A stretch of DNA of 64,000 nt from Minisyncoccota bacterium (lineage in GTDB: Bacteria > Patescibacteriota > Minisyncoccia > Phycocordibacterales > UBA9973): positions 124,029-188,028 of the forward strand of contig DASWWS010000002.1 of NCBI GenBank assembly GCA_036405895.1. The letters run 5' to 3'. Positions within the stretch are counted from its first letter, which is position 1, and each line of letters opens with the position of its first letter. Position numbers and translations under genes: made by a program. The notes beneath the pieces are model-generated. The model ran no database searches and was not told where the DNA came from. It saw nothing but the letters and a program-made list of their open reading frames with translations. Shown here piece by piece: positions 16,511 through 59,208 of this stretch.

Positions 16511-16540
16511 CGTTAAACGGGAGATTTTTTATTATTTTAT
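16511..16540. terminator. Bidirectional terminator AAAAATCTCCCGTTAAACGGGAGATTTTTT
   Basis: Hairpin plus T-run between convergent rplT and the pilin gene. Confidence 0.8.
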
Positions 16541-16998: not shown

Positions 16999-16999
16999 A

Positions 17000-17524: not shown

Positions 17525-17545
17525 GTATCCTCAGTATATCAGCAA

Positions 17546-18016
17546 TTACGAAGGCCACTCGCCTTCCATGAAGCAGGAATATCCTACATCCGTATGTTCC
17601 TGATTGCAGCGGCCGTTTGGCGGCAGTTTCTCAAACTTCACAAAAACAATGTAACTTTGATTGTTAGCATTGTATACGCCGTATTGCACATTGCAGTTTA
17701 CATTGTTGGGATCCTTTGGGTATGCCGGCAAAAACCCTTCGGTGACCAAGCTCTGCATAAAATTATTGTTCACTGTTGTGTACCCTTCCGTACCGACGCA
17801 TTCATTTTCCGTCTCGTGCGGATAATACCCATATTTGTCATAATAAAATTCCAGTCCTTTTTGTATTTCACGGATGGTGGCTGCCCGCTGCGCATCGCGT
17901 GCCTTTCCTCTCGCACTGTTCAAGGATGTCATCACAACGGATGCCAAAATCCCAATCACTGCGATGACGACCAAAAGTTCAATAAGGGTGAAGCCTCGAC
18001 TGGCATTAGATTTCAT
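17546..18016 (-). CDS. type IV pilin-like protein (prepilin)
   Basis: MKSNASRGFTLIELLVVIAVIGILASVV. Closest paralog of 16537..16998. Confidence 0.8.
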   Translation of the reverse strand: MKSNASRGFTLIELLVVIAVIGILASVVMTSLNSARGKARDAQRAATIREIQKGLEFYYDKYGYYPHETENECVGTEGYTTVNNNFMQSLVTEGFLPAYPKDPNNVNCNVQYGVYNANNQSYIVFVKFEKLPPNGRCNQEHTDVGYSCFMEGEWPS

Positions 18017-40670: not shown

Positions 40671-41274
40671 GATAATAGTATATGATGAAAGTATGTATAC
40701 CGAAAAAACATTCACTATTGCTCCGTTTGCAAGTCTGTCCAAGAAATCAATAGAAGAGCACAAAAAGCTGTATGCGGGCTATGTAAAGAACGCAAACCTT
40801 GTTTTGGAAAAACTTGCTTCCTATAAGGATGACGAGTCAAAAGCATATGAGACCGCTGAGCTATATCGCCAATTTTCTTTTGAATTCAACGGCATGCGCA
40901 ATCACGAATGTTACTTTGCACTTCTTGATGGAAAGAGTGAGCTTGATAATGACAGCACACTTCTCGGTGCCATCAGTGCACAATGGGGCGATATGCAAAC
41001 ATTTAAAGACGCATTCCTCACACTTGCGCTTACCCGCGGTATCGGCTGGGCAATGCTCTCATACGACAAAGCGCAGAACAATTTAGTAATGCACTGGGTG
41101 GACGAACAGCACCTTGGACAGCTGCAAGGCACAACTGCAATCATCGCGCTCGATATGTGGGAGCACTCCTATGTTGCCGACTATCAGCCGTCCGGTAAAA
41201 AACAGTATGTAACAGACTTCATTGAGAATATGAACTGGTCTGCGGCAGAAGATTTTTTCGCACGCGCGAAATAA
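40669..41274 (+). CDS. sodA: Fe/Mn superoxide dismutase-like protein
   Basis: N-terminal His region IEEHKKLYAGYV. NGMRNHECYFALL matches the GGxxNHxxFW region. C-terminal DMWEHSYVADY...NW matches the DxWEHAYY signature. Confidence 0.7.
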   Translation: MIIVYDESMYTEKTFTIAPFASLSKKSIEEHKKLYAGYVKNANLVLEKLASYKDDESKAYETAELYRQFSFEFNGMRNHECYFALLDGKSELDNDSTLLGAISAQWGDMQTFKDAFLTLALTRGIGWAMLSYDKAQNNLVMHWVDEQHLGQLQGTTAIIALDMWEHSYVADYQPSGKKQYVTDFIENMNWSAAEDFFARAK

Positions 41275-42685
41275 ATTCCGAGAGCTCTCCCTTAAAGAGG
41301 GTGAGAAAAAATAAACAGTAGATTCCAACAACACTCCATGCCGAAAGGTCTGGAGTGTTATAGAGAGGAAGCAATGAAAACAATTGGAGTCCCTCTATCA
41401 CTACAGTTCCCACAAATGAAAGCAGTGCGCCTAACGCAGCCGCAACAGGAGCAATAAAAGAGCTTATGAGAACAACGGCTCCTCCTATCATAATCACGGG
41501 GGTAGCAACACCAAGAAAAATATTTGCTGGCACTGACGCAAGCGGAGCTATTCCTGCAAAATACATGAGATATGGCAGCATAAACAACGGCAGTAGCACC
41601 GCAAGCATCACAAGCTCCCGTATATTTACTATTGCGGTTTTTGGAATAAATGAAAACAGCATTTCGGCTTTTGGAATCACAGTGACCATACAAAGCGTTG
41701 CAAGAAATGAGAGATGAAAGCCGGGGTCGTAAAAAACCATTAGGGGCGACCAGAAGAAAAATACTATATAGCTAATAAACAGCGCTCGGAGGGCATTGTA
41801 TTCTTGAAGTCCCATCGTTGCCAAAAGTGCAATAGAACCCATCACTCCTGCACGCACAGCGGCAACCCCGGCCCCGCTGATAAGAACAAGAAAAATGATC
41901 CCAAAAAATGTCAGTACAAGGCGCACTCGAGTAGGAACACTGCGAAACATCACTCCAATAAATCCGCCCAAGAGGGTAATGTTGTAGCCTGAAAGGACTA
42001 ATACATGAAGCACTCCTGTAGTGCGAAAGAGGTCTTCTGTATCTTTTGGTATGCCGCCTTGGTACCCAAGCACCATACCAGAAACAATGCCGTCGACAGG
42101 AAATGAAATATGCCGGACAAATATATCAGAGAGCACATAGCGAGCAGTTGCAGCAACCCGTCGTGCGCTGAGAGCTCCAACGTGAACAAGAGCAATTTCG
42201 CTATCGTACATCACTGCAACAATACCTTTGCTTTCCAAATAATCCTTGTATGCAAAAAGCCTCCCTGTATCAGTAATAAAATCCTGTGGTTGCTCAACAA
42301 TACCGGTGATACTAACAATATCTCCGGGTACTACTGAAAGTGCTTCATATACAGTGACCTGTATTCTTTGGGAATAAGCCTCATCGCGTACTGTAAGGTT
42401 TGTACGGTCAAGCTCTCTGTTAACTGAGAGTACTGTTGCTTCAACTCTTCGCTCTCCAAACAATTCCAGCTGTAGCACCGTTTGCCGACTCCACACCAAA
42501 AGTCCTCCGATGATGCAAAAAATCACTACTGCACTTCCGGCTACCATCCCCTTTTTACTCGATACATACAGCCATGTGCACGCACCGAAAAATATACTAA
42601 TAAGGGCTAATTGTAAAAACGATACTCCAAACACATGGAACAATGCCGCACCGAAAGTAAGAAAAAGTATGGCAATCTCTACCAT
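41219..42685 (-). CDS. comEC: ComEC/Rec2 competence-domain membrane protein (DUF4131 plus the Competence domain, without an MBL domain)
   Basis: 488 aa polytopic protein. Conserved GAGVAAVRAGVMG region of the ComEC channel domain. Confidence 0.7.
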   Translation of the reverse strand: MVEIAILFLTFGAALFHVFGVSFLQLALISIFFGACTWLYVSSKKGMVAGSAVVIFCIIGGLLVWSRQTVLQLELFGERRVEATVLSVNRELDRTNLTVRDEAYSQRIQVTVYEALSVVPGDIVSITGIVEQPQDFITDTGRLFAYKDYLESKGIVAVMYDSEIALVHVGALSARRVAATARYVLSDIFVRHISFPVDGIVSGMVLGYQGGIPKDTEDLFRTTGVLHVLVLSGYNITLLGGFIGVMFRSVPTRVRLVLTFFGIIFLVLISGAGVAAVRAGVMGSIALLATMGLQEYNALRALFISYIVFFFWSPLMVFYDPGFHLSFLATLCMVTVIPKAEMLFSFIPKTAIVNIRELVMLAVLLPLFMLPYLMYFAGIAPLASVPANIFLGVATPVIMIGGAVVLISSFIAPVAAALGALLSFVGTVVIEGLQLFSLLPLYNTPDLSAWSVVGIYCLFFLTLFKGELSEFISRVRKNLLPQTSSYSQ

Positions 42686-43647: not shown

Positions 43648-45288
43648 TTATAAAACCTCCCGTATTCTGAGGCGCACTCCGCTTCGAAAGCCTGGTTCGA
43701 GTGTTGCAGTAAAAGAAATGGTTGCGCCTGGAGAACACTGTGCGCACAGTTCATCGCTCGCAAAAAACGTAAACGCTGTCATGCTTGCAGTCGCGTCCTG
43801 CACCACACATTCCAAATGCTCGCGTGTTTTGCCGAACTTTTTCGCACTTACCACTTCAACATCTTTGAACAAAAACAATGGTTCAGGATTTCCTACCCCA
43901 AACGGTGCAAATCTTCTGATAACCTGATGGTGGCGAGTCGTTGCAATAGCAAGTGGGACTTCTATCGGTGTATGCGCAATGACTGCCTTTTCTGTATCCC
44001 CCACAGTTTCAATCGCACCATTGAGCGCATCTTCTAAAAAGTGTACCTGTTCTTTGCTCACAGAAAACCCGCCCGCTGCCTGGTGTCCTCCTGCGTGAAG
44101 AATCGCTCCTTCGGGAAGCGCCTGAAACAAATACGCGGCATGGTGCACTGCAATCATCCGGCATGAGCCTTTGAGGCTTCCGTCCCCCGCCTCGCCCCAC
44201 ACAAAAAAGCTTCGCTCGTACGTTTCCTGCAGCTTGTTTGCAACCAATCCTAAGACTGCTGGGCGCCATGTCGGGTCGCCAATTACCACAATAGCAGGCA
44301 GTTCGCGCGTGGAGAGGCGCGCATGCGCTTCTTTTACAATGCGTGCCACCAAAAGCTTTCGCTCGTTATTTATCTTGTCGAGTTCAGTAACGATAGTCAT
44401 CGCCTCTGATCGGTCCTCAGTTGCAAGCAAATTAAATGCGAGCATCGGGGTACGCATGCGCGACGCAGCATTGAGGCGCGGCGCAACAGTGAATGTCAGA
44501 TCAGTCTCGGAGAGCTTGTCCATCATCAGTCCATTGTTGGCAAAGAGTGTCTTCAAACCAACGCGACGCGTCTTTTTCATCACCATCATGCCGTATGCTA
44601 CAAGGACGCGGTTTTCGCCGGTCAGCGGGACCATGTCTGAGAGTGTTGCGAATCCCACCATGTCGAGGAGCCACTTCTCCCAGCCCGCTACAATGCCGTA
44701 CTCTTTCCCGTATTTTTCCAAAAATGCACGCACAAGCGTGAACGCAACACCTGCTCCGCAAAGGTCTTGATTAGAGTAGGTACCTTTTGCGGGATGCACA
44801 ACAGCGTATGCTGCGGGGTATTCCGGGAGTGGTGCGTGGTGGTCGGTCACTATGCAATCTATCCCGCGGCTTTGCGCGTCTGCAATTTCAGCAAGGGCGG
44901 TAATACCAACGTCCACGGTGAGCATCAGCGTTACTCGCTGTTTTTGCATCTCGTTAATACCAAGCACGCTCACGCCATATCCTTCATCATGGCGGTCCGG
45001 GATATATACTCGTACATAGTCTGCAACACCGAGTGCCTTAAAAAAATCGAGGAGGATTACTGCAGCCGGAATGCCATCGCAGTCATAGTCGGCGTAAATG
45101 CCAATAAATTCTTTCGCATCCACTGCGCGCTTGATGCGTTCAACCGCACGCTCCATGTCCTCAAATTTCCACACGTCGCCAAGGCTGTATGAAGGGAAAA
45201 GGAATTCTTGCTGTGCCTCTGGTGTGAGCCCCATTCGATCAATTAAAATAGCCTGCAATTCATCAGGCGTCGGAGTAGTTGGTTCCAT
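43648..45288 (-). CDS. recJ: single-stranded-DNA-specific exonuclease RecJ
   Basis: DHH motifs (IYADYDCDG and IVTDHHAP) and DHHA1 region. Start at MEPTTPTP, with its ATG inside the palindrome arm at 45286-45288. Confidence 0.85.
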   Translation of the reverse strand: MEPTTPTPDELQAILIDRMGLTPEAQQEFLFPSYSLGDVWKFEDMERAVERIKRAVDAKEFIGIYADYDCDGIPAAVILLDFFKALGVADYVRVYIPDRHDEGYGVSVLGINEMQKQRVTLMLTVDVGITALAEIADAQSRGIDCIVTDHHAPLPEYPAAYAVVHPAKGTYSNQDLCGAGVAFTLVRAFLEKYGKEYGIVAGWEKWLLDMVGFATLSDMVPLTGENRVLVAYGMMVMKKTRRVGLKTLFANNGLMMDKLSETDLTFTVAPRLNAASRMRTPMLAFNLLATEDRSEAMTIVTELDKINNERKLLVARIVKEAHARLSTRELPAIVVIGDPTWRPAVLGLVANKLQETYERSFFVWGEAGDGSLKGSCRMIAVHHAAYLFQALPEGAILHAGGHQAAGGFSVSKEQVHFLEDALNGAIETVGDTEKAVIAHTPIEVPLAIATTRHHQVIRRFAPFGVGNPEPLFLFKDVEVVSAKKFGKTREHLECVVQDATASMTAFTFFASDELCAQCSPGATISFTATLEPGFRSGVRLRIREVL

Positions 45289-45332
45289 GCTCTGAGTATA
45301 GCATTTATCAAATTTGCTATACTCAGAGCATG
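45286..45332. promoter_or_regulatory. Perfect 18-bp inverted repeat with an 11-bp spacer (CATGCTCTGAGTATAGCA-tttatcaaatt-TGCTATACTCAGAGCATG). It contains symmetric extended -10 boxes (TGCTATACT) 6 nt upstream of both divergent start codons.
   Basis: Read directly. Both ATG codons (recJ on minus, hit on plus) lie in the outer arm ends. This implies leaderless divergent transcripts and a possible operator. Confidence 0.6.
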
Positions 45333-45722
45333 ACGGACACAATATTTGGAAAAATCATTTTGGGAGAAATCCCTTCCACAAAAGTATATGAGGATGGCGA
45401 CTGTCTGGCCTTTATGGATATCAACCCTGTTGCCAAAGGGCACGTATTATTAATACCGAAAGCGCACTTTGTATGGATGCAAGACGTCCCCGATGTACTC
45501 CTTTCTATGCTTTTTATCCGTGCAAAACGACTGATGATCGCAATGAAAGAGTCTTTAGGGTGCGACTATGTACAAGTTTCGGTTGTCGGGAAAGACGTAC
45601 CACACTTTCACATTCACCTTATCCCGCGCTATATGAACGATGAACTGCACGGCTGGCGCACGGGTACGTATGAAGAAGGCGAGGTTATTGAATTTGCCAA
45701 AAAAATAACAACTGCACTGTAA
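45330..45722 (+). CDS. HIT-family (histidine triad) nucleotide hydrolase
   Basis: HFHIHLIP histidine-triad motif. Start at MTDTIFGKI. Confidence 0.8.
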   Translation: MTDTIFGKIILGEIPSTKVYEDGDCLAFMDINPVAKGHVLLIPKAHFVWMQDVPDVLLSMLFIRAKRLMIAMKESLGCDYVQVSVVGKDVPHFHIHLIPRYMNDELHGWRTGTYEEGEVIEFAKKITTAL

Positions 45723-47679: not shown

Positions 47680-49434
47680 TTATACCTCTTTCCACGAATC
47701 AATATTCCATGATCCGCTCGGTCCGCTCGAAAAATTGAGGTTTGCAATTCCACTCTCATAGGTAACAGAGCTGCCTCCAGAAATACTAATGGCATAGCCC
47801 GTCACTTGTTTTGCAGTCACCCCTCCTGTAAGGCTAATAGTTCCGTTCTGGGCGACAAGGATAACCGCCCCTGATCCTCCGTCTTGGGTGATTGCATTGC
47901 TTGCAGTCGACTTCGAAACAAGCAGAATGTAGCTGCCTGTTGTACCGGAACCATTCGCCGTCCCGCCCCCCGAAAGAGCAATTCTACCGTTTACCAAGAC
48001 CGCATCGCTTGCTGTTCCATAGGCGCTCGAGAGCCGTATTGTTGAGCCTCCACTAATCGTCAGTGTCCCCGTTACCCAGAGCGTTCCGTCAAGTATTACT
48101 GTTGACCCACCCGTTACAGTAAGATTGCCAACAATTTTTCTCGGCCCCATATTGACCGTAGTCCCGCTTCCGACAGTAATATTTCCGGTAGTAGTTGTTC
48201 CGAGAACGGCTTTTTCTTCCCATGAAGCAATTGCATCTTCAGATACCGGCCACTCCCCTTCAGCATCAACCGCTCCAGTTGTCGTGCAGGCCTTATTGTT
48301 TCCAGTTCCGCTTTGGCAATGAATGGTTCCACCCACAATGGAATCGTTTACTGTGTACGCCCGCGCATCTCCACCAATGCCCCCTCCTTTTAAGTTATCA
48401 ATCAGTCCGGTGCTTCCCCCCATAAATACGCCAAAATATCCATCCAAACCGTTTGGCGTGGTTGCACTAAAGCTTCCGCCAAATACCCCGACCTTCGCCA
48501 TGCCATTTGCATAGGTGCTGTTTGTCGCACCAAGCGTATAGTACGAGCCATAGGTTGAGCTGGTATCAAGCACTATCCAATACGTGCTCCCTGCATTGAG
48601 TGTAGGAGCGGCTCCGAACGGAACAGAGATGTATGAATACCCGGTTCCTATGTCCTCATGGTCAAGCGTTGCAGAGGCAATTGTTGTTCCCGGATTTCCA
48701 CCACTATTTGCAGTGATGCGCACGGTGATATCTCCCATCCACGCCGCTGAACTTTTTTTAATATATAGCCGGACATTTGAAAGCGTATTGGATTCGGACA
48801 CCTGAAAACTCTGCGCCATGTCGTCGGTGTAGTTCGTCTGCCAGTCCACGCTCCCACCAAAGCGTATCTCTGCCGGAGGAACAGCAGCACCGTCATTTTG
48901 CTGGTTGGCAGTCGGGCTTGAAACAGTAGCGCTCACTGCAGTGCCGCTGATACTGTTTGAGCCGCTGTTGTTTGCGGTGATAGGGCCATTGGAATAGACG
49001 TTACCGACAATGCTCCCGCTCTGAAGCGATATGCCTCCGCGGCCCGCTTGCAGTCCGTATTGAAATGATGCACCCGCGCCCTGCGAAACGGTGACAGAAA
49101 CGCTTCGATTGCGGTCTTTTGCATCCCCCACAGAAGTAATCTGCTTTTCCGTAAGATTGACCGTTGTTACCGTAGTAGTTGTTTCAGCGGTACCTAAAAC
49201 AAGCGTCTCGCTTGCCGAAAGCTGCTTGCCGGTGCGCAGTCGGTACAACACATCCTCAACCCCGCTCTCGGCAATAAAATAGCTTTGCTTTGCCTGAAGC
49301 GAGTCTTCCGCGATGCGGTTTGCGTGCAGCGCCGGCACCACCAGCCCCAATGCAATAGAAAGAGAGAGTGCGACAAAGAGCACCATGGTGATAATCAGAA
49401 CGCTTCCTTGATTATACGAGTTTCTTTTTTTCAT
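47680..49434 (-). CDS. Large pilus-associated protein (putative minor pilin or tip adhesin) with an N-terminal TM anchor and Gly/Thr/Ser-rich body
   Basis: Last gene of the pilB-pilC-pseudopilin operon. N-terminus LIITMVLFVALSLSIALGLVVPALHANRIAEDSLQAKQSYFIAESGVED resembles PilX-type N-termini. Confidence 0.5.
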   Translation of the reverse strand: MKKRNSYNQGSVLIITMVLFVALSLSIALGLVVPALHANRIAEDSLQAKQSYFIAESGVEDVLYRLRTGKQLSASETLVLGTAETTTTVTTVNLTEKQITSVGDAKDRNRSVSVTVSQGAGASFQYGLQAGRGGISLQSGSIVGNVYSNGPITANNSGSNSISGTAVSATVSSPTANQQNDGAAVPPAEIRFGGSVDWQTNYTDDMAQSFQVSESNTLSNVRLYIKKSSAAWMGDITVRITANSGGNPGTTIASATLDHEDIGTGYSYISVPFGAAPTLNAGSTYWIVLDTSSTYGSYYTLGATNSTYANGMAKVGVFGGSFSATTPNGLDGYFGVFMGGSTGLIDNLKGGGIGGDARAYTVNDSIVGGTIHCQSGTGNNKACTTTGAVDAEGEWPVSEDAIASWEEKAVLGTTTTGNITVGSGTTVNMGPRKIVGNLTVTGGSTVILDGTLWVTGTLTISGGSTIRLSSAYGTASDAVLVNGRIALSGGGTANGSGTTGSYILLVSKSTASNAITQDGGSGAVILVAQNGTISLTGGVTAKQVTGYAISISGGSSVTYESGIANLNFSSGPSGSWNIDSWKEV

Positions 49435-49435
49435 A

Positions 49436-49921
49436 CTACTGCGTACGCAACAAAGCGGTCGAATAAAATGACGCAGTCCTGATAACCCCTCCGGTTGCCG
49501 TAAGCGTAAGCTCCACCTTCACTCCTTCCCCAACTGGAGTGGTGATGCGGCGAAAGACCATATTCGTTACAGCTACCTGGCTGGTAGAAAGAATTCCTGT
49601 TGTACTGTTTTCCGTTATAGTAGCTGCGCCATTTGAAACAGCAAACGCAACCGTATCTCCCCCGCTTGCAAGCGTAAGTGTTCCAGGGTGAGTGCCAAAC
49701 GTACCCGTTGAAATGCTTTCGGCGTCGCGCACTTCGCGCGTAATGCGCTCAATGATAAGTTCGCCGTTGTTCTGAAGTCTTCGGAATCCTTGTGCGCTTG
49801 CGTACGTGCGCATCAACACCACCAATGAATGCACCAAAAGAACCGAAATCATGGCAAAAAGCGCGACATAGACCAATAGTTCGAGCAATGAATATCCTTT
49901 GTTTGTATTTTTTATTTTCAT
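49436..49921 (-). CDS. pseudopilin (prepilin-type N-terminus)
   Basis: KGYSLLELLVYVALFAMISVLLV. Placed in the operon. Confidence 0.65.
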   Translation of the reverse strand: MKIKNTNKGYSLLELLVYVALFAMISVLLVHSLVVLMRTYASAQGFRRLQNNGELIIERITREVRDAESISTGTFGTHPGTLTLASGGDTVAFAVSNGAATITENSTTGILSTSQVAVTNMVFRRITTPVGEGVKVELTLTATGGVIRTASFYSTALLRTQ

Positions 49922-49922
49922 A

Positions 49923-50390
49923 CTATTGCCTAATGTTTGCTATATAAAATGCCAAACTTTTTGTTTGCAAGCCGGTTGATGCAGACCAGGAAACAGTTAC
50001 CGTCACAAGCTTTGTTCCCGAATCAGTTGTTCCGCTTGCCGCAATGTCGTCCGTTGCATTTCGGGAAACGTTCGTTACGACAATGCTTCTGGTAAAGCGG
50101 TCAATTACAACAGGAGTTGTGGTAAATACCCACGCGCTTCCATTGTATGACAAATAGTACGTCGTGCCCGGAGTAAGCGAGCTGATGCTGCTCCATGAGG
50201 TATCGCGAATCGCCTTTGTAGCTTCTGCCCCCTCTTCAAGAAGAAATGACGCTTGTGTTCGCTCAAGCGCACGCTGGGAGACTTCTACTGTGTTCTGTAT
50301 TGAACCAATCAATAAAATAAGCACCACCGCAATAACAGACGATGCGATAATCACTTCTATAAGAAAAAATCCGCGTTGTGAAGAATGCAT
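49923..50390 (-). CDS. pseudopilin (prepilin-type N-terminus)
   Basis: QRGFFLIEVIIASSVIAVVLILLIG. Start moved to MHSSQRG. Confidence 0.6.
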   Translation of the reverse strand: MHSSQRGFFLIEVIIASSVIAVVLILLIGSIQNTVEVSQRALERTQASFLLEEGAEATKAIRDTSWSSISSLTPGTTYYLSYNGSAWVFTTTPVVIDRFTRSIVVTNVSRNATDDIAASGTTDSGTKLVTVTVSWSASTGLQTKSLAFYIANIRQ

Positions 50391-50391: not shown

Positions 50392-50841
50392 TTAATTTCG
50401 TGCGACAGTACCAGTGGCGGTAACAGTGATAGTGCGGAGTGTCCCGCTTGGCAATTGCAATTGTAGTGTACCATGATGCGCAGTTGTTCCGCGCAGTCGG
50501 TCAAACGTTATTGTTGACCCCCCGCCGGAAAGAGCAACTGTTCCAAGCACTACAGGTGATTCGTATAAAAAGATTTGATTGGTGGGAGCTGCGCTTTGAT
50601 ATGTTGCCCCGCGAAACAAAATTGCGCGGTCGGCCTCCAGCCGAACGCTGTAGTTCGTGTTCTCGGTCCCCGCAAGCGTTTTTGCGCGCGCCTCATTGAT
50701 GACAGTAAGCACTGCATTGGTCGTATTTTGCAGCGCTTGCTCTCGTCTGAATCGAATAATCGGCAAAGATGCAATACCCATCAATACTCCAACAATAGTC
50801 AGGACAATCAAAAGCTCAATAATGGTAAACCCTTTTTTCAT
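50392..50841 (-). CDS. pseudopilin, GspH/FimT-like
   Basis: MKKGFTIIELLIVLTIVGVLMGIA prepilin motif. Confidence 0.75.
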   Translation of the reverse strand: MKKGFTIIELLIVLTIVGVLMGIASLPIIRFRREQALQNTTNAVLTVINEARAKTLAGTENTNYSVRLEADRAILFRGATYQSAAPTNQIFLYESPVVLGTVALSGGGSTITFDRLRGTTAHHGTLQLQLPSGTLRTITVTATGTVARN

Positions 50842-50842: not shown

Positions 50843-52048
50843 CTATTGAATACTGTCCATCAGTGAATACATAGGCGAAAGCATTGAAATGGCAAAAAAT
50901 CCCACCGCGCCTCCGATAAAGATCATCAGTACAGGCTCGATGATAGTAGAGAGATCCTTTGTCTTTGCATCAACCTCCGCTTCGTAAAATACCGCAATAT
51001 CGAGCAGCATGTTTGCAAGCTTCCCCGTCTCTTCTCCGACCGCTACCATTTCGCCAACCATCACCGGATAAAGATTGGTGTGTCGCTGAAGCACGCTCGA
51101 CATCGTTTCACCTTTTTCCACGCGCTCTTCAATTTCGGCAAGCACGCTCTTATAATAGCTGTTTTGCAGCACTTCTTTGGTGATGCCGATTGCGCGCGAA
51201 ATGCTCACTCCTGCAACCAAGAGAGATGAGAGCGTGCGGGCAGTACGGGCTGCATTCACCTCTTGTACCAATACGCCAACCACCGGCACGCGAGTGCTCA
51301 TATAGTCTGAAAACTTCTGCACTGCCGGGCGCTTAAACGCAAAGTAGCCTCCCACCACTATCACTGCAATGCCCAGGAGAAGAAATGCAATATGGTTTGA
51401 AATCATATCCGAAACCCATACCACAATGCGCGTTGAAGTCGGCAGGTCAACATTGAGTTCTTTGAATGTTTTTGTCAGTACTGGCACAACATAAATAAAC
51501 ATGAGTATTCCGATAATGAATATAGCGACAATAATAATCGCCGGGTACATGAGGGCACTTTTTATTTTTCGGTTGAGGTTGTAGCTTTTTTCAAGATTCC
51601 CGCCGACTTCCATTAATGCCTCAGGCAATCCTCCCGACTCTTCCCCTGCTTTCACCATTGCCACAAAAAGGCTGGAGAAAATAGCCGGGTACTTGGAAAG
51701 TCCCGCTGAAAAGGTCTCCCCATTGTCGATACTCGCAATCAGCGACTCAAGAATTGTTTTAAAATAATTGTTTGTTGTCTGTTTTTTCAATACAACAAGG
51801 GCTCGTGCAAGCGGAAGGCCCGCGCGAAGCATGCCGGCAAGGTTTTTTGTGAAAATGATTTTCTCGCTGAGTTTTACGCGCTTGAATATGCCGTCGAGCG
51901 TCAGCGTGCGCTTCTTTTTTTCTGTCACCGTAATCGGTGTAAGGCCGGTCTCGCGCAAGGTAATAATCGCTTCGGTCTTAGTAGGCTCCTCAATCACTCC
52001 CTCAACCAATGCTCCGGTTGTGTTTCGCGCCGTGTAGGTAAATAGCAT
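50843..52048 (-). CDS. pilC: type IV pilus assembly platform protein PilC / GspF family
   Basis: Two T2SSF domains. Conserved GEESGxL region. Confidence 0.9.
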   Translation of the reverse strand: MLFTYTARNTTGALVEGVIEEPTKTEAIITLRETGLTPITVTEKKKRTLTLDGIFKRVKLSEKIIFTKNLAGMLRAGLPLARALVVLKKQTTNNYFKTILESLIASIDNGETFSAGLSKYPAIFSSLFVAMVKAGEESGGLPEALMEVGGNLEKSYNLNRKIKSALMYPAIIIVAIFIIGILMFIYVVPVLTKTFKELNVDLPTSTRIVVWVSDMISNHIAFLLLGIAVIVVGGYFAFKRPAVQKFSDYMSTRVPVVGVLVQEVNAARTARTLSSLLVAGVSISRAIGITKEVLQNSYYKSVLAEIEERVEKGETMSSVLQRHTNLYPVMVGEMVAVGEETGKLANMLLDIAVFYEAEVDAKTKDLSTIIEPVLMIFIGGAVGFFAISMLSPMYSLMDSIQ

Positions 52049-52116: not shown

Positions 52117-52548
52117 TTATTTGAAGAGTGTTCGATACTTTGTCGGACTGGTTTCGTTTTCAAGCTCAAGCGAGGTTGCTGTCAAAGTGATAATTCCGTA
52201 CGTAATGGTGCTATTAGAAGCTTTCAGTACAATTTTAGTATCGTTTGCAGTCGGCTCCCAGGTGCCATTAAAACTTCCGCTTCCTCCAAATTCAACATAG
52301 GAAAATGTTTTGTCGGACTTAAAGGTGTAGGTATCCTTTTTTTCTTCCACGGACAGAGGGTCGTTAACACGAGTGCCGGAAACAATTTGCGTCGCAGAAA
52401 CAGGTGTCCACGTTTTTACCAAGAGCAGTGCTTTTGCACTAAGGCCGGGTTGTTCTGTTTTCGGAGTAGGGTTGTCTTTTTTGCAAGAAACAAAAGAAGA
52501 ACTGATAATCATTACCAATCCCGCTAAATAGAGAGAAATCTTTTTCAT
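52117..52548 (-). CDS. Lipoprotein, hypothetical (within the pilus operon)
   Basis: Signal peptide with lipobox SFVSC. Confidence 0.5.
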   Translation of the reverse strand: MKKISLYLAGLVMIISSSFVSCKKDNPTPKTEQPGLSAKALLLVKTWTPVSATQIVSGTRVNDPLSVEEKKDTYTFKSDKTFSYVEFGGSGSFNGTWEPTANDTKIVLKASNSTITYGIITLTATSLELENETSPTKYRTLFK

Positions 52549-52627: not shown

Positions 52628-54373
52628 CTATTCGCTGACAACTCGCAATACGTCATCAATGGTTGTTTTTCCTTGAGCAGCCTGGAAAATGCCATCTTCA
52701 AGCATTGTCATCATCCCCTCTTTTTTTGCTTGTGCTTCCACTTCGTCCGCGGTGCCATTGCGTAAAATAATTTCCTTGATTGTCGGCGTGATTTTCATTA
52801 CCTCATGAATGCCGATACGGCCCTTGTATCCGTCTTCGCTTTCTTCTGAGGCCTTTGGTTTATAAAAGGGAATCTTCTCCCATGGCATACCCTTTTCAAT
52901 TATGTGCTCAGCTTCCAAAAACTTTCTCATTCGATCAAGGTCAAGCGAGTGCCCGAGCGTTGAAACTTCCACTGCGGTAAGAAAATATGTTTCTTTAGCA
53001 GCAGTCAGACGGCGCACCAAGCGCTGTGCCAAAATGGCTTTTGCGGTCGAAACGATAAGAAACGGCTCAACGCCCATATCAATCAATCGAGGGATAGCGC
53101 CAGCGGCTGAGCTTGTGTGGATAGTGGAGAGCACCAAGTGCCCGGTAAGGGCCGCATTCACTGCCAAGTCTGCAGTTTCGCCATCGCGCACCTCTCCAAC
53201 CATGATGATGTTGGGGTCTTGTCGCAAAAGCGCACGCAAGCCGTTGGCAAAGGTCATACCGATGTCAGACTTTACTTGCGTTTGATTGATGCGCGGCATC
53301 TGATACTCGATCGGGTCTTCAACGGTTGAGATGTTTACCTCCGGCGTATTTAAAATATCGAGCAATGTATAGAGCGTAGTAGTTTTTCCGCTTCCAGTCG
53401 GCCCTGACGCCAAGATAATGCCTGAGTGCTGGCGAAGTGCTTCGTGGATTGCTTCGAGCCCGCTTCCATGAAAGCCTAAGCCTTCAAGCGTAAAGCCGTG
53501 CGTGCTTTCGCGCAAAATACGGACTACTGCCTTTTCGCCATAGTATGTTGGAATGGTCGAGACACGAAACGATACGGGCGTCTCATCAAGCACCATTTTA
53601 AAGCGCCCATCCTGCGGCAAGCGCTTCTCGTCGAGCTTAAGACTCGAGAGCACTTTGATTCGCGCCGTAATTGCCGGAGCTGCACCCTTTGGCAAAGTCA
53701 TTGCGTCATGAAGAATGCCATCGATACGGTAGCGGATTATCATTTCATTTTCTCCGGGCTCCATGTGGATGTCAGACGCGCCCTGCATGATAGCGTGCGA
53801 AATCAATGAGTCCACAATCTTGATTACCGGCAAGTCTTCAGCAAGGGCCTTGAGGTCTCCCACTGATGCGTCCGCATTCACTTGCGGAACATTCTTCAGC
53901 GACAATGCTTCAGTTTGAATAATAGAGTCGAACTCTGCTTGGAGGCTCTTTCGATACTGCTGGAGCACGGCTTTGATAGTTTCGGTATCTGTCAGGCGCG
54001 GCAAGATGCGGAGCTGCGTCTTTTTTTTGATAAAGTCGATAGCGGGCAAGTTATCGATGTCGAGCATTGCAACCTCCAAATCGCTTCCCGACTTTTTATA
54101 CGCAACAATATTGTAGCGGCGCGCGATTGATTCAGGAATCAGCGCAAGCGTGTCCGGGTCGAGACGCTCTTTTGTCAGCCCAATAAATGGAATACCCAAT
54201 ACATATGCCTCTAATCGCTTGATCTCGCTTTCTTTCACTTTTCCCGCATTCAAAAGGAAGTCTGAAAGCGACTGATCTTTATTTTCTCGAGCATCGTAGG
54301 ATTCAATGTCGGCAAGAGATGCGATATTTGCATCAAGTACAAGATTGCGGAGTTTTATTTGATCGATCACCAT
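52628..54373 (-). CDS. pilB: type IV pilus assembly ATPase PilB / GspE family
   Basis: N-terminal GSPII_E_N domain, Walker A SGPTGSGKTTTLY, Asp and His boxes. Confidence 0.9.
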   Translation of the reverse strand: MVIDQIKLRNLVLDANIASLADIESYDARENKDQSLSDFLLNAGKVKESEIKRLEAYVLGIPFIGLTKERLDPDTLALIPESIARRYNIVAYKKSGSDLEVAMLDIDNLPAIDFIKKKTQLRILPRLTDTETIKAVLQQYRKSLQAEFDSIIQTEALSLKNVPQVNADASVGDLKALAEDLPVIKIVDSLISHAIMQGASDIHMEPGENEMIIRYRIDGILHDAMTLPKGAAPAITARIKVLSSLKLDEKRLPQDGRFKMVLDETPVSFRVSTIPTYYGEKAVVRILRESTHGFTLEGLGFHGSGLEAIHEALRQHSGIILASGPTGSGKTTTLYTLLDILNTPEVNISTVEDPIEYQMPRINQTQVKSDIGMTFANGLRALLRQDPNIIMVGEVRDGETADLAVNAALTGHLVLSTIHTSSAAGAIPRLIDMGVEPFLIVSTAKAILAQRLVRRLTAAKETYFLTAVEVSTLGHSLDLDRMRKFLEAEHIIEKGMPWEKIPFYKPKASEESEDGYKGRIGIHEVMKITPTIKEIILRNGTADEVEAQAKKEGMMTMLEDGIFQAAQGKTTIDDVLRVVSE

Positions 54374-54470
54374 TGCTTGTAGTATAGCAACAACACTGCA
54401 AGTATGCGCAATAAAAAAACCACTTCCGTGTTGAAAGTGGTTTTTTTATTTTTTCTACAATGCCCGCAAA

Positions 54471-55667
54471 TTATGGATTAAGAGTAATGTCGATAATAGT
54501 GGCACTTCTGTCGATATAGTAGTCAAAATTTGCTTTTATACCTCCAAAAAGTCCTCCACGCCATGACATACCGTACAAGTATGCATAGAGGTCAACTGTG
54601 TCTCCCGGCTGAAGTACTATCGTTTTTTCAAAGCTGAAATTATACGGAACATCTCCAAATGACTTCCATTTATTCACCTGACTCAAAGAATATTGTGCGT
54701 AGAAATAATTATCCACTGGAACATCTTCGCCTGGTTGGTTGTTCCAGATATCGTAAAATCCTGATCCTACTGGAGCGAGAGGGTAATGGTCATTGTTGAT
54801 TTTTACAAAGAAATTTGTATTTCCAAATGCTATCGCACTGTTATACCTATTCTTAAGCCCCATAGAACCTCTTGCACTGATTTTGATCGAGTATGTTCCT
54901 GCCTCTTGAACTGTTAAGAGACGTCCCTTGTCGAGAGCAAACTCTGTTTTACTGATACCAGGAAGAGTATCAATAATAACACCCTCAGGCCTACTGTTAT
55001 CAATACCTATTTTGCCAATATAAGGAACAGTAACAAATTTCTGTGTCCATGCATGGTTAGGGCTTGGTCCATCTATTTCAACCCACTGTCGAAGAGTAGG
55101 GAAGGTAAAATCTTGACGCTTATATGATGGAGCTACTGAATAGAAACGCTTGAGAGTAGGGGCGTTACAAGTGCCGTCTGAAGAACGGGTATGACCCTGC
55201 GGGATAGTATACTGGTGCCCAGAAATGTTTGAACACAAGTCATCAGTACACAAACCAATAACTCCGCTACCATCCGCACATAATCGCGAGTTATCCGGAT
55301 TGGCGACAAATTGATTTTGTATATAATCTGCTGCTGCAAGATTACCACTGATAGCCGCATCGGTCACAGTACTCATAGGAACACTACCGAGCTGAAGGGT
55401 GCTTGTAGTATCAAGAGGGGTTCCTCCTCGTACTGTCCCCCGAAGCGAAAGGTCTTGCTCGAATGAAGCGTTTTGCGAAACAATAAAATTATTAACAGAG
55501 AGTCCTCCTGTCTTTATTTGAGCTGGGCCCACATGGATTGGTATACCCGTATTGCTTCCATAGGGAATGCTTGCGGGTGCTGTCCACTGAGCAAGAGTAC
55601 TTGCAGCAAATGCGAGCGTTAGACCGAAAGCGATATATTTAAGGTTGGTGAGGAGTGTTTTTTTCAT
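54471..55667 (-). CDS. Secreted paralog family member 1 (398 aa)
   Basis: Signal peptide MKKTLLTNLKYIAFG shared with the two downstream paralogs. GGLSV motif. LCADGSGVIGLC Cys pair. Confidence 0.55.
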   Translation of the reverse strand: MKKTLLTNLKYIAFGLTLAFAASTLAQWTAPASIPYGSNTGIPIHVGPAQIKTGGLSVNNFIVSQNASFEQDLSLRGTVRGGTPLDTTSTLQLGSVPMSTVTDAAISGNLAAADYIQNQFVANPDNSRLCADGSGVIGLCTDDLCSNISGHQYTIPQGHTRSSDGTCNAPTLKRFYSVAPSYKRQDFTFPTLRQWVEIDGPSPNHAWTQKFVTVPYIGKIGIDNSRPEGVIIDTLPGISKTEFALDKGRLLTVQEAGTYSIKISARGSMGLKNRYNSAIAFGNTNFFVKINNDHYPLAPVGSGFYDIWNNQPGEDVPVDNYFYAQYSLSQVNKWKSFGDVPYNFSFEKTIVLQPGDTVDLYAYLYGMSWRGGLFGGIKANFDYYIDRSATIIDITLNP

Positions 55668-55671
55668 ATAA

Positions 55672-56445
55672 TTAACAGTTCAATTCAATAATGTAAGCAT
55701 CTCCTGGATTAAGATAAAAGTCTGTTGCACCACCTGGCAAAGGAACAGGAGACCATCCTGGCAAGCAACTAATGTCAGACGAGGTGATGTTATAGCTGCC
55801 CGGGTCCACTTGATATACATCCGACATACCCATATTGGTTCCTAACGGTAATTCGATAGTATACATATTCGCATTATCACTGTTGCGAATAACTACATTA
55901 GTTCCAACCTGCATTGATCCGTTAACATACAGTCTCACAACCGTTTCAACAGTAGCAACAGGAGGGGGCGGAGGAGGTATTACGGTTACAGTTGAATCAC
56001 ATAATACAAGTGTTCCCGATTCATCAGCGCAAACACCCGCATTTATAGGGTTGGCTAGTTGAGCGCTTTGTACTGTATATACAGTGTTGGCGACTCCCCC
56101 AGAAATAGCAACATGCGCCATTGCGCCATCTGCACCAAATTCCACCGTTCCCCGCTGCTCAGTAGGATTACCCCCTCGAAGTGCTCCAGTAAAAAATGAT
56201 TGACCATCAATCTGTGCGTCTGCCATCGCCATAAACCATCCACCCAAGGAAAGTGAACCCTCCTTGATCTGGTCAGCACTACCGCTCGTAATTACAGTCG
56301 GCGCATTATTGTTAGGGAACGAAGCGCTTGGTCCTGTATAAGAATTGGAAGGTGTCCCCCAACTTGCGTGGGCATAGCTTGCAAGTGTCGCCAAAACAAT
56401 GCCGAAAGCGATATATTTAAGGTTGGTGAGGAGTGTTTTTTTCAT
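55672..56445 (-). CDS. Secreted paralog family member 2 (257 aa)
   Basis: Identical N-terminus (nucleotide-identical start and upstream junction to member 3). C-terminal domain ~80% identical to member 3, ending ...IELNC. Confidence 0.55.
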   Translation of the reverse strand: MKKTLLTNLKYIAFGIVLATLASYAHASWGTPSNSYTGPSASFPNNNAPTVITSGSADQIKEGSLSLGGWFMAMADAQIDGQSFFTGALRGGNPTEQRGTVEFGADGAMAHVAISGGVANTVYTVQSAQLANPINAGVCADESGTLVLCDSTVTVIPPPPPPVATVETVVRLYVNGSMQVGTNVVIRNSDNANMYTIELPLGTNMGMSDVYQVDPGSYNITSSDISCLPGWSPVPLPGGATDFYLNPGDAYIIELNC

Positions 56446-56449
56446 ATAA

Positions 56450-57187
56450 TTAACAGTTCAAGGTAATAATAACGTGCTCTCCTTCATTAAGGACAAAGTC
56501 TGTTGCAGCACCGGGCAAAGGAACAGGAGACCATGTCGGCAAGCAACTAATGTCAGACGAGGTGATGTTATAGCTGCCCGGGTCGACACGATATGGATTT
56601 GACATACCCATATTGCTTCCTATTGGAAGCTCGATGTTGTACATATTCGCATTATTACTGTTGCGAATAACTACATTAGTTCCCACCTGGTTTGTATTGT
56701 CGACATAAAGACTGACTTGGCCATATGGAGTTTGAGAGGGTGGTGGTACTGCCGGAGGTTGGGGCGCCTGATCTCCGCAAAGAAAGAATGTTCCGTCTTG
56801 ATTTGCGCATACCGGCTTTTTTCCTCCCCCTGAAGCGAGCGAGTTTGATTGTATTGTCCCTTTTGTACTGATAGAACCGTTGATCAGTGCGTTTACTTTA
56901 TAACTTGAGTCTCCAACAGCAACAGTACTAGTGCCGTTTCCTTGTATGTTACCCCCCGTTATCACTCCTTTAACAAAAGTGTCCTGACTGAAAAGTGCGC
57001 TTCCGCGACCATAAAATGTCCCAACAGAAAGTCCTCCTGTCTTATCTTGATTAATTGCCGTGATATTAAGCGGTGCGTCAGTATTTGCACCAAATGCACC
57101 AGTTGTCGGAGGGGTATATGCAGAAACCACTCCTGCAACACCGAGCAAGATTCCAAGTGCAATAAGGCGATAGTAGGTGGTTTTCAT
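56450..57187 (-). CDS. Secreted paralog family member 3
   Basis: Start moved to MKTTYYRLIALGILLG. C-terminal VGTNVVIRNSNNANMYNIELP...SSDISCLPTWSPVPLPGAATDF...ITLNC. Confidence 0.55.
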   Translation of the reverse strand: MKTTYYRLIALGILLGVAGVVSAYTPPTTGAFGANTDAPLNITAINQDKTGGLSVGTFYGRGSALFSQDTFVKGVITGGNIQGNGTSTVAVGDSSYKVNALINGSISTKGTIQSNSLASGGGKKPVCANQDGTFFLCGDQAPQPPAVPPPSQTPYGQVSLYVDNTNQVGTNVVIRNSNNANMYNIELPIGSNMGMSNPYRVDPGSYNITSSDISCLPTWSPVPLPGAATDFVLNEGEHVIITLNC

Positions 57188-57188
57188 A

Positions 57189-57521
57189 TTACTGGTTAAA
57201 ACTGTTAAGCATTTGTAATCGATCACTTGAAGTTGTCGTTGTCGGCGTAGAAGTAGATCCAAGAAGTTGTCCTTGTGCATACGTGTTCTGTACGTCTTCA
57301 TTTACGGGAAGAGAAGATTCTCTCAACCGCTCGAGGACACCTTCCGGGGTCTTCTCTTTTTGCTTTGCAATAAAATACCATACCCCCAAAAGAATCAACA
57401 CAATAACCAAAATAATAGCAATCATGGTGCGCTGTTTTTTCTGGTCGTAATCACTGGGAACACCGTGCTCTTCAAGAACGCGAGGGTTATAGTTATTGTT
57501 TTGTGCAACAGATGTGGGCAT
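57189..57521 (-). CDS. Small single-TM protein
   Basis: 110 aa, central TM helix, Thr-rich C-terminus. Confidence 0.4.
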   Translation of the reverse strand: MPTSVAQNNNYNPRVLEEHGVPSDYDQKKQRTMIAIILVIVLILLGVWYFIAKQKEKTPEGVLERLRESSLPVNEDVQNTYAQGQLLGSTSTPTTTTSSDRLQMLNSFNQ

Positions 57522-57534
57522 GATGATAAATATA

Positions 57535-59019
57535 CTAGAATTCTATGAATATTGGCTTCTTTTTCTCGATTGCAACTGTAGCCGCCGCTTCGCTTCCACA
57601 TTGTACCGTGACAGAGGTTATTGCGGGAGGAACTATAATGTCGCTCATTATGCTCCATATACCACTGTTGCCTTGCTGCACCAGGTTTACAGTACGAGTG
57701 CTCGCACCCCATGTAATATTACAACTTGCGCCTGCACCGATGCGAGAAATGATAATTCGCTGTCGACTTCCTGGGGTGGTACCAACCGGACAAGCAGAGA
57801 GGCCGCCAGCCGGAATAGGAGAACCATCAGGACAGTATGGATCATGGGCAACTCCATCACATCCCGTACAATTTGGACCAGGATCAGGAAGAACAGTAAT
57901 GGTTGTTTTTACACACATTCCTCCTTCGAGAATATAGCCGGTAGGAATCGTCTGTTGTGCACCGTCGATATTAGGACACATATCGTCTTGAACACAATTA
58001 GCACCTGATGCCGTGTATCCGTACGGGATGGTTGTCTGCGTACCGTCTATGTTTGCACACATATCAGGCGGTGTTATTTCACAACTAAAGCTTGTACTCA
58101 CCGCATCTGAGAAAAATGGTGCAGTTGCAGGACTTCGGGAGTGCGCCCATGCACCATAGCTCGCTCCTGGAATGCCGGCGGTAGTATAGCTCGTTGCGGC
58201 CCCTTCCCAACAGCTGTCTCCTGGATTATTACAAGGACCTGCACCTTCTTCCCATCCGTTTGCAAGATTATTAACACGGAAACTGTACCAATCGGCACCC
58301 GATACTGGAGCAACTGTTACAGTAATTTGATCTCCTGGAGCTGGACATGATGCAGTAATAGCAGGCACCGGAGGGCGGCACTGGAATGAAGGGTCAACAG
58401 TGGGCGCTCCCTGTGACCACACAGTCCCAGCCGGACAAGAGACACTTCCTACAGATCCATTCACACTTGTCCACCCTATCACTTCAGACCCCCATAGAGA
58501 GCCAGTGAGTGTGCGTGTCCCACCACTATCGGGCCCCAGTGTAAGGCCGTACCCGCTTCCCGAAAGGGAAAGAAAGCCATCCCAGTCTCCCAAATAAGCA
58601 TTATTTGCCAAGGCACCACTACACCCTGAAGCAAAAACAGAACAAGCGCGAGCCCATCCTTTTATTCCATATGATCCGTCAGGACCTGGATATGCCAAGT
58701 CTACATAGGCGCCTTGCGTGCAGCCACTCGTCGGACATCCAGCCGGAGAAAAAGTGATCCATCCGATATTTGAAGACCACGCGGTCCCTGAAATAGCTCC
58801 ACTTGCCGGATCAACAGAAACGCCATAGTCAGAACCGGTACAGGAGGAGGTATTGGTTGGGTCAGTACAGTTATTGAGCGATATCCACCCGATATTTGAA
58901 GACCACATATTCCCACTTGCATTGCTATTGGTACCAGCGCGCAATGATGATGCAGCAAAGAGCGCAAGAGTGGTCATAGTGGCGAGAGCGATGAGAAGTA
59001 CTTTGGTGCGAGTCTTCAT
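57535..59019 (-). CDS. Large secreted Cys-rich protein with 'AWSSNIGWI(S/T)(L/F)' repeats and 'C-x-NIDG-x-QTTIP-x-GY' repeats
   Basis: Start moved to MKTRTKVLLIALATMTT, a signal peptide. Repeats MWSSNIGWISL, AWSSNIGWITF, MCANIDGTQTTIPYGY and MCPNIDGAQQTIPTGY seen directly. Confidence 0.55.
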   Translation of the reverse strand: MKTRTKVLLIALATMTTLALFAASSLRAGTNSNASGNMWSSNIGWISLNNCTDPTNTSSCTGSDYGVSVDPASGAISGTAWSSNIGWITFSPAGCPTSGCTQGAYVDLAYPGPDGSYGIKGWARACSVFASGCSGALANNAYLGDWDGFLSLSGSGYGLTLGPDSGGTRTLTGSLWGSEVIGWTSVNGSVGSVSCPAGTVWSQGAPTVDPSFQCRPPVPAITASCPAPGDQITVTVAPVSGADWYSFRVNNLANGWEEGAGPCNNPGDSCWEGAATSYTTAGIPGASYGAWAHSRSPATAPFFSDAVSTSFSCEITPPDMCANIDGTQTTIPYGYTASGANCVQDDMCPNIDGAQQTIPTGYILEGGMCVKTTITVLPDPGPNCTGCDGVAHDPYCPDGSPIPAGGLSACPVGTTPGSRQRIIISRIGAGASCNITWGASTRTVNLVQQGNSGIWSIMSDIIVPPAITSVTVQCGSEAAATVAIEKKKPIFIEF

Positions 59020-59208
59020 GAATACATAGAGTATAGTGCACATACGACAACACGTGCAAGCGTTGTAAAGAAAATGTGTGGATAAAAAGTTTTTCTCCTC
59101 TGTCTTGCGTCCTGTAGCGAGTATGCTATACATATATATGTACATGTCCCGGGCACACCTATGGGGCATTTTTAGTAAATTAGTAGGACAAAATAATAAC
59201 AATCACAT

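Follow-up and report, generated by a model that had tools for sequence, protein, structure and literature searches.

A conserved five-gene block, most likely an operon of its own, for predicted exported proteins with hypervariable heads in Paceibacteria

We analysed a 64,000-nucleotide stretch of a Minisyncoccota bacterium (contig DASWWS010000002.1, positions 124,029 to 188,028, assembly GCA_036405895.1), hereafter called the window, with respect to a block of five minus-strand genes that we name g5 to g1 in their 5′ to 3′ order. All positions are those of the window unless a related locus is named. The first gene, g5 (57535-59019), encodes a 494-aa secreted Cys-rich protein with a signal peptide and is followed by g4 (57189-57521), which encodes a 110-aa bitopic membrane protein, and then by three paralogs, g3 (56450-57187, 245 aa), g2 (55672-56445, 257 aa) and g1 (54471-55667, 398 aa). 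The gaps along g5-g4-g3-g2-g1 are 13, 1, 4 and 4 nt. An initial annotation, made from the letters of the window, had described three back-to-back minus-strand open reading frames (ORFs) preceded by a small transmembrane (TM) protein and a 494-aa secreted Cys-rich repeat protein; the ORF map agrees with it, and g4 and g5 are the two upstream genes. In the source metagenome-assembled genome (MAG, Candidatus Paceibacterota) the locus tags are VGE18_03075-03085. By comparison of sequences we find here a conserved block, most likely an independent operon, for predicted exported proteins of undescribed families, in which a constant N-terminal domain (N-domain) is joined to exchangeable C-terminal heads, with recombinational mosaicism both between paralogs and between strains.

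To place the block in context, 13 distinct related loci (labelled L001 etc.) were recovered, of which 11 have a visible downstream side. Wherever the contig reaches, all 13 have nusA facing outward, then g5, g4 and exactly three paralogs, with g4 between g5 and g3 at every locus. The same five-gene order, together with pil genes, is kept in L019 and L020, whose PilB is only 74-75% identical to that of the window. A single-protein scan of GTDB genomes gave one locus only, which lies on the contig of L001. The N-domain tree, built for five genomes, has three position-specific clades with bootstrap values of 96-99, and as the clades follow gene position we take the triplication to be ancient, with no recent amplification. 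In L006 the g1 and g2 types of N-domain are present in swapped positions. At L001 (3816-7548), three additional genes lie between nusA and g5. They code for a lipoprotein of 247 aa, a membrane protein of 657 aa and a protein of 295 aa in which two thrombospondin type 1 repeats are present (176-nt tandem repeat at 88% identity), so the island also acquires genes at its upstream edge.

Directly after the g1 stop codon, between g1 and pilB, lies an intrinsic-terminator-like hairpin on the minus strand (54410-54450) that consists of an A-tract, a perfect 16-bp stem (16+16 nt) and a U-run (UUUUUUUAUU; z = -4.3). Of the 10 relatives checked, 9 likewise have a hairpin and U-run behind g1; the exception is L006, with a weaker hairpin and no clear U-run. 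Upstream of pilB we also find the motif TTGCGC-N19-TATACT, conserved in the window (54374-54409), L003, L001 and L008, which ends about 7 nt before the ATG. Given this hairpin and U-run and the promoter-like motif ahead of pilB, the signals in the DNA indicate that g5-g4-g3-g2-g1 most likely form their own operon, apart from pilB. The presumed operon promoter and 5′ untranslated region lie in the divergent nusA-g5 intergenic region (59020-59208, minus strand), where a TATACT is present 10 nt before the g5 ATG. This region has 87-93% nucleotide identity to L003, which matches the conservation of the flanking housekeeping genes. The closeness of TATACT to the ATGs of both pilB and g5 suggests that their mRNAs are leaderless or have a very short leader. 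An Rfam search of the region upstream of g5 for a riboswitch or other RNA element matched no family, and Shine-Dalgarno sequences are not visible at the g3, g2 and g1 junctions.

On alignment, g1, g2 and g3 share one plan consisting of a type I signal peptide, an N-domain of ~115 aa, a Pro/Ser/Thr linker and a C-terminal head. The N-domain spans aa 26-140 in g1 (nt 55248-55592), aa 28-149 in g2 (nt 55999-56364) and aa 23-137 in g3 (nt 56777-57121). It is followed in g1 by one CxNIxGxQ mini-domain (aa 145-168) and an L-type head that runs to aa 398, in g2 by a PPPPPP linker and an S-type head (aa 165-257, nt 55675-55953), and in g3 by a Pro-rich linker and an S-type head (aa ~153-245, nt 56453-56731). 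The S-type heads end in LNC; the C-termini read ...IIELNC, ...IITLNC and, for g1, ...DITLNP, and none carries a TM segment. All three N-termini are n-h-c signal peptides, with the ends TLA|Q, AHA|S and VSA|Y for g1, g2 and g3, respectively. The initial annotation had given the three genes a common start and identical signal peptides. This is correct for g1 and g2, where the start is MKKTLLTNLKYIAFG and the g1 signal peptide is as in g2 (MKKTLLTNLKYIAFG...AHA|S), but not for g3, which starts with MKTTYYRLIALGILLG (signal peptide MKTTYYRLIALG...VSA|Y), as do the g3 orthologs in every related genome. A metagenome scan with the back-translated signal peptide TNLKYIAFG gave three chance matches in unrelated organisms. 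In all of the exported proteins the signal peptide is of type I with an AxA site, and the number of Cys is even. Motifs of the N-domain are P..N...P(L/I)N, Q.K.GGLSV, A.F.Q, G..RGG, TV.FG and a terminal C-A-[DN]-x-x-G-x-x-x-L-C (C-x9-C); the last is carried by g1, g2 and g3 alike and is of the Cys-x-x-DGT-x-x-LC type that had been pointed out before.

It had also been stated that none of these proteins belongs to a recognised family, and our searches led to the same result. No match was found for g1, g2, g3 and g5 in Pfam, NCBIfam, PHROGs, PADLOC or PDB sequences, nor for 10 orthologs in Pfam, while PDB sequence searches with the N-domain profile, the g1-family profile and g5 gave nothing significant, and g4 gave only weak TM-driven noise in Pfam. 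No SLH, LysM or other cell-wall anchoring domain was detected in g1-g5 by Pfam and NCBIfam, or in the 10 orthologs and 140 family representatives by Pfam. To survey the N-domain, an exhaustive profile search was run over 1.84 billion representatives, with clusters at 50% identity, and yielded 1,311 clusters at E <= 1e-3, of which 261 are at E <= 1e-10. Word-indexed homolog searches had returned ~30 relatives, a number that the exhaustive hidden Markov model (HMM) search identifies as an index artefact. In the best 150 matches listed, the N-domain comes directly after the signal peptide with 3 exceptions, and the protein lengths are 134-631 aa. Across 140 representatives the two Cys of the N-domain do not vary, and conservation exceeds 90% for Q, K, L and several G. 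Of the 140 newly found relatives, 30 are N-domain-only proteins; in Pfam, 3 have Hint domains (Hom_end_hint, Vint, PT-HINT), 4 have DUF4215 and the rest have no match. Judged by this profile, the N-domain defines a large undescribed family that has no Pfam model.

The structure of the N-domain and that of the heads are discussed separately. AlphaFold2 (AF2) modelled the g2 N-domain and the whole of g1 at low confidence, with a predicted local distance difference test (pLDDT) score of 35-55 for the N-domain, and because of this low confidence we draw no inference on its fold. The heads of g2 and g3 are predicted to be CnaB/transthyretin-like sandwiches. The model of the g1 head matches C1q, TNF, BclA and tail-fibre tips, and we tentatively regard this head as probably a C1q/TNF-like jelly roll. 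The predicted folds of the window heads are adhesin-like and typical of binding modules, in keeping with the adhesin-like nature and the variability that the initial annotation had proposed. In the relatives, the head may be made of Ig-like repeats, of Hint and Cys-rich modules, or be absent. In g3 of L019 (7690-8862) and g1 of L020 (10001-11113), for example, the head is Hint/intein-like (CFVA[DG]T...YLVHNK) and is followed by a ~60-aa Cys-rich tail, which suggests autoproteolytic release or ligation of a small module.

The two upstream genes also combine constant and variable parts. Orthologs of g5 are 334-549 aa long, are found at the same position in those relatives whose contigs reach there, and share their first ~200 aa (two WSSNIGW copies, GWARACSVFASGCSG, WDGFLSL and WGSEVIGW), with a variable middle. 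In the window, g5 contains 22 Cys; WSSNIGW is located at residues 39 and 81 and CxNIxGxQ at residues 321 and 348. The middle of the protein holds two CxNIxGxQxxIPxGY mini-domains, and the CxNIxGxQ...GxC mini-domain is common to g5 and the g1 linker. The protein ends, without a TM segment, in the tag KKKPIFIEF, which belongs to a C-terminal octapeptide K[KLIR][KQ]P[IV]FxEF-COOH found in the window (57535-57561), L003, L006, L008, L014, L015, L017 and L018. This tag is retained even where the ~250 aa before it are unrelated, varies in L007 and L019 (...EEI ends) and is absent in L020. The additional thrombospondin-repeat protein of L001 carries the same C-terminal domain and tag as g5 (L001 7522-7548). 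The octapeptide may be an undescribed sorting or docking tag. As for g4, its cytoplasmic part carries NNNYNPRVLEEH; a single TM helix leads to an external tail that contains TPE..L..L..SS.P and has RLQMLNSFNQ at the C-terminus, and the cytoplasmic and C-terminal motifs are conserved.

The junctions between the paralogs hold a repeat, which the initial annotation had described as a ~65-bp block of nucleotide identity. The repeat is real, but its exact length is 60 nt (55624-55683 = 56402-56461; 66/69 identical over a longer span), and it is one of only three exact repeats of at least 30 nt in the window. It comprises the last three codons and the stop codon of the upstream gene, a TTAT spacer and codons 1-15 of the next gene. 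These 60 nt form the 3′ end of a 315-nt direct repeat with 84.4% identity and a 778-nt period, in which copy A (55624-55938) consists of the g2 head, stop codon, TTAT and first 15 g1 codons, and copy B (56402-56716) of the g3 head, stop codon, TTAT and first 15 g2 codons. The C-terminal domain shared by g2 and g3, earlier given as ~80% identical, was thus rightly recognised, and its measured identity is 73% in protein, the 84.4% being that of the DNA over the repeat. The window g2 head further shares 71% identity with the g3 head of L005 and 85% with the g2 head of L003, against only 34-39% with the remaining g2 heads. As this kinship cuts across gene positions, we conclude that a g3-type head was copied into g2 before the lineages of the window and L003 split, and that the g3 of L003 gained its long head later. 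The signal peptide of g1 and g2 is kept as a peptide in L001 and L003, but there the DNA of the same junction is only 81-84% identical, with synonymous differences, so the 100% DNA identity in the window marks a recent conversion. The array was therefore correctly proposed to be a substrate for gene conversion, with the head copied from g3 to g2 and the 60-nt junction recently homogenised.

The initial annotation had named invariance of the locus as the outcome that would speak against it, and we found the opposite across the relatives. Between genomes whose PilB is 94-99% identical, the heads fall to 12-55% identity with sharp breakpoints, and such heads on near-identical backbones leave no room for an invariant locus. 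On comparing the window with L003, the flanking NusA, PilB and PilC are each 94% identical and the first pseudopilin and TIM 92%, whereas within the block the values are 74% for g5, 47% for g4, 47-55% for the N-domains, 26% for the g1 head and 80% for the g2 head. As to g3, the window has a short type of head and L003 a long one (401-aa protein). Similarly, L001 and L005 have PilB 99% identical but g2 heads 54% and g3 heads 41% identical. Along the DNA of this pair, sliding identity is ~88-92% over the N-domains and drops to 46-68% over the heads of g3 and g2, and the switches are located at C-x9-C or the linker and at the next start codon. For L001 and L018 the DNA identity is ~90% over g5, g4 and the g3 N-domain, and then 50-60% from the first head codon. 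For the window and L003, identity is 80-92% in the flanks and ~50% along a stretch that begins within g4 and runs to the g1 end, and the 88-92% island within this stretch is exactly the g2 head, the junction and the g1 signal peptide. By the Nei-Gojobori method, L001 and L005 have a dS of 0.26-0.37 for lp, pilB and pilC. For the N-domains and the g1 head dS rises to 0.53-0.76, for the g2 head it is saturated, and dN/dS is 0.02-0.16 throughout. The raised dS together with the low dN/dS indicates old alleles moved by recombination under purifying selection, and no runaway point mutation. Also, the phylogeny of the heads and that of the N-domains are in conflict.

To rationalize these observations, we lean towards the account in which the operon exports disulfide-bonded modular cell-surface proteins whose distal parts are hypervariable by homologous recombination and which act as variable surface or host-binding proteins. 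The N-domain, which is beta-rich and closed by a C-x9-C hairpin, would be constant and serve to dock the protein on the cell or to assemble it there, and the head would be the variable part that contacts a ligand, with the products at the cell surface. The sequence comparisons show how the variation arises: heads, and at times whole genes, are replaced by divergent alleles, with breakpoints at the end of the N-domain and at the conserved stop-spacer-ATG-signal-peptide junction, which serve as homology arms. In the window lineage, a tract of g3 head, junction and signal peptide was copied onto the next gene, and its last 60 nt were homogenised very recently. Donor DNA may come from transformation via the neighbouring pilus/ComEC uptake machinery, and frequency-dependent selection may arise from host or substrate recognition, from phage avoidance, or from both.

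Several points weigh against this account. Expression, surface location and ligand binding of g1-g5 are predictions, and since the N-domain is not folded in AF2, its docking or assembly role is pure inference. Recombination is read from the comparison of MAGs and contigs, and such assemblies can be chimeric; the mosaic pattern recurs in four independent genome pairs. The Hint domains (including PT-HINT) and Cys-rich C-termini of some relatives constitute an architecture of released effectors and not of adhesins, the adjacency of the block to pilB in 9 of the 11 judgeable loci makes a functional link to the pilus possible, and the surface variation could be driven by phage avoidance instead of host binding.

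With respect to architecture, the closest parallels to the proposed surface proteins are modular phage receptor-binding proteins and tail fibres (T4-type gp37/gp38) and proteins such as BclA and F-BclA, in which a collagen-like or fibrous stalk carries a C1q-like tip; these likewise combine a conserved docking part with exchangeable distal heads and likewise exchange the heads by recombination at conserved junctions; the match of the g1 head model to C1q/TNF/BclA/tail-fibre tips fits here. The N-part of our proteins does not fold as a monomer in AF2. Unlike phage tail fibres, they are Sec-secreted and encoded on the chromosome, in an operon that is flanked by nusA and pilB/TIM and contains no phage genes, and unlike BclA and phage fibres they have no collagen repeats and no PHROG match. 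A prophage remnant was also considered for the locus and rejected, as there are no phage genes or PHROG matches and the synteny between housekeeping genes is fixed.

A more specific form of the surface-protein account, which we put forward as a speculative and on the whole unlikely model, is that the paralogs co-assemble via their N-domains into a so far undescribed Sec-dependent non-pilin surface fibre of Paceibacteria, with g5 tethered by its KKPIFxEF tag, g4 (perhaps with the lipoprotein) as membrane base, and heads swapped by transformation to set the host range. The presence of three N-domain lineages in every genome, the headless N-domain-only members, the N-domain that is unfolded as an AF2 monomer, the resemblance of the g1 head to C1q/TNF trimers and the nearness of ComEC and an uptake pilus are consistent with such a fibre. 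The spacing of 1-4 nt between the genes suggests equimolar synthesis. Sortase-assembled Gram-positive pili and MSCRAMM-type adhesins, which have stalk domains of the CnaB fold, are likewise encoded by small operons with three paralogous secreted subunits. Unlike these, g1-g3 have neither LPXTG nor a C-terminal TM anchor and show no sequence similarity to them, and a sortase gene is not among the called genes of any locus. A pilin or E-box motif was not seen either, though no test aimed at it was made.

The neighbouring pilus genes give rise to another explanation. Pfam confirmed the order pilB-lipoprotein-pilC-three pseudopilins-tip protein proposed downstream of the block, namely pilB (52628-54373, minus strand; T2SSE ATPase, E 4e-122) as first gene of the pilus unit, a lipocalin-like lipoprotein (52117-52548, Lipocalin_4), pilC (50843-52048, T2SSF), three N_methyl pseudopilins (50392-50841, 49923-50387 and 49436-49921) and, in the place of the tip protein, a 584-aa pilus-associated protein (47680-49434), with TIM and PGK beyond. 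Hence g1-g3 (and g5) might belong, as non-pilin components or tip adhesins, to the neighbouring type IV pilus or competence pseudopilus. In 9 of the 11 loci the block has the same orientation as pilB and directly precedes it; pilB-pilC-pilins-~590 aa-TIM-PGK follow there, and these loci include the genomes with PilB 74-75% identical. The 584-aa protein is also fast-evolving (85% identity to L003 and 53% to L001, against 94% and 92% for PilB) and may be a second variable, exposed component. Yet all loci belong to one clade with conserved nusA...TIM synteny, so the adjacency to pilB may simply be inherited. In addition, g1-g3 have Sec type I signal peptides and, like g5, lack the class III motif (G|FTLIE; N_methyl, Pfam PF07963), whereas the true pilins of the window have an N_methyl match or GFTLIELL. 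The strong terminator after g1, in the window and 9 of 10 relatives, and the conserved promoter-like motif of pilB separate the two units, and in L006 and L015 (Ca. Nomurabacteria) the block is retained but pil genes are missing from the site, where TIM-PGK comes directly after the block and a lipoprotein. By hhalign the N-domain shows no relationship to the 584-aa protein or to g5. We therefore consider a role as pilus accessory rather unlikely, and the earlier idea of pilus-presented proteins does not agree with the signal peptides, the terminator before pilB and the two lineages without pil genes at the site.

Other features near the pilus unit may be mentioned. The lipocalin-like lipoprotein is mobile, being located either after g1 or between pilB and pilC (window 52117-52548; L006 6565-7128; L015 7107-7523); it is absent in L007, L019 and L020 and adjoins the block in both lineages without pil genes there, and may belong to the block instead of the pilus. 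A few kb beyond the pilus operon lie ComEC (41219-42685), a metallo-beta-lactamase-domain ORF (39807-40763) and RecJ (43648-45342), the relative position of RecJ being kept in L019 and L020. About 35 kb from the pilB operon, on the minus strand (16537-18016), there are three tandem genes for true type IV major-pilin-like proteins (161, 174 and 156 aa), all with GFTLIELLVVIAVIGILASVVLASLNSARAK, which have a 65-nt identical 5′ end (exact direct repeat, 16892/17412). They make up a second array of three paralogs whose N-termini are identical; the first and third are alike over their whole length and the middle one has a different globular part. A tmRNA is found at 12455-12841.

The constant N-terminal part with hypervariable C-termini is also what would be expected of polymorphic effectors or toxins such as CdiA, Rhs and MafB, in which case the N-domain would be a trafficking or presentation module and the C-termini payloads for host or competitor cells. 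In the paralogs, a constant region is indeed linked to a variable C-terminus through a conserved junction for recombination, with sharp breakpoints at a conserved motif, and Hint domains occur in 3 of the 140 family representatives and, with the ~60-aa Cys-rich tail, in L019 g3 and L020 g1. This resembles the CdiA-CT, Rhs and MafB systems with pre-toxin Hint domains, which likewise have a constant N-terminal region, swapped C-termini and sharp breakpoints; in the family described here, Hint/PT-HINT is present in a few members. Unlike in those systems, however, there are no immunity genes: small ORFs of the immunity type are lacking, the next paralog begins 4 nt on, and a terminator comes after g1. 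Also, Pfam found no recognisable toxin domain in the window proteins or the 140 relatives, the window heads are predicted to have binding-module folds (CnaB-like, C1q/TNF-like), and many members (30 of the 140 relatives) have no C-terminal module that could be a payload. We thus regard the effector explanation as unlikely.

A related possibility is that the products are structural proteins of the envelope or of a fibre, whose variation would mainly serve to evade phages or host defences, and are hence targets, not adhesins. Hypervariability with an ancient-allele signature is as in phage-receptor loci, and bacteria of the Candidate Phyla Radiation (CPR) mostly lack CRISPR (see also PMC6509639). 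No observation separates phage escape from the adhesin account, but the predicted head folds are typical binding modules and no SLH or cell-wall-binding domain was detected, and we consider escape as the main cause quite unlikely. A comparable case is the hypervariable Ig-domain gene module of Thermococcales, which is reported to centre on secreted hypervariable beta-sandwich proteins with a proposed role in self/non-self or conflict recognition (PMC8416519). Like the present block it is a conserved gene module reportedly known from comparative genomics alone, but the proteins and the organisms are unrelated and the gene content is different.

Cassette switching within a cell lineage as programmed antigenic or phase variation (pilE/pilS-like, by an invertase or by a diversity-generating retroelement, DGR), to which the 60-nt identical junction within a 315-nt repeat between adjacent genes and a DGR near the block of one relative (L001) might point and which the initial annotation had suggested, is highly improbable and largely refuted, since there are three complete genes with signal peptides, fixed positions and ancient orthologous lineages, no promoterless silent copies, no recombinase among the neighbouring genes, no inverted repeat of note other than the terminator and no reverse transcriptase near the block in the window, and since in L001 and L003 the identity of this junction is no more than 81-84%, the differences being synonymous. 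An inverton was accordingly rejected. The DGR core of L001 (326-1692; bAvd and reverse transcriptase) lies beside pyrophosphatase-nusA, about 6-8 kb from the block, and DGR-driven variation was rejected as well, as no repeat of the template/variable repeat (TR/VR) type was found in L001 1-13000, which covers the reverse transcriptase gene through g1. The Neisseria pilE/pilS system does share with the block the gene conversion of surface-protein genes between tandem related sequences with conserved 5′ parts in a transformable setting. Unlike pilE/pilS, g1-g3 are not pilins, there are no silent cassettes, and the exchange is seen on evolutionary timescales.

Hypervariable, recombination-shuffled surface proteins as such are a well-known kind of system. 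What is new are the families, the fixed module of three paralogs with g5 and g4, the signal sequence conserved as a peptide and the C-terminal tag, and we found no description of the five-gene module in the literature searched. Paceibacteria are by far the largest CPR class, and to our knowledge almost nothing is known of how they recognise and attach to partners, the mechanistic work being nearly all on the pili of Saccharibacteria. With a family of ~1,300 clusters and a fixed operon, the locus is a concrete and widely conserved candidate for partner recognition in Paceibacteria, and its ancient alleles, head swapping and conserved scaffolds are what population genetics leads one to expect for an interaction surface. 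Should the heads bind host structures, head alleles could mark host range in metagenomes, and the N-domain together with the KKPIFxEF tag would suggest that proteins are mounted on the CPR envelope in a new manner. If the variation instead reflects phage receptors or effector delivery, the locus would still be a rare handle on the conflict biology of these organisms.

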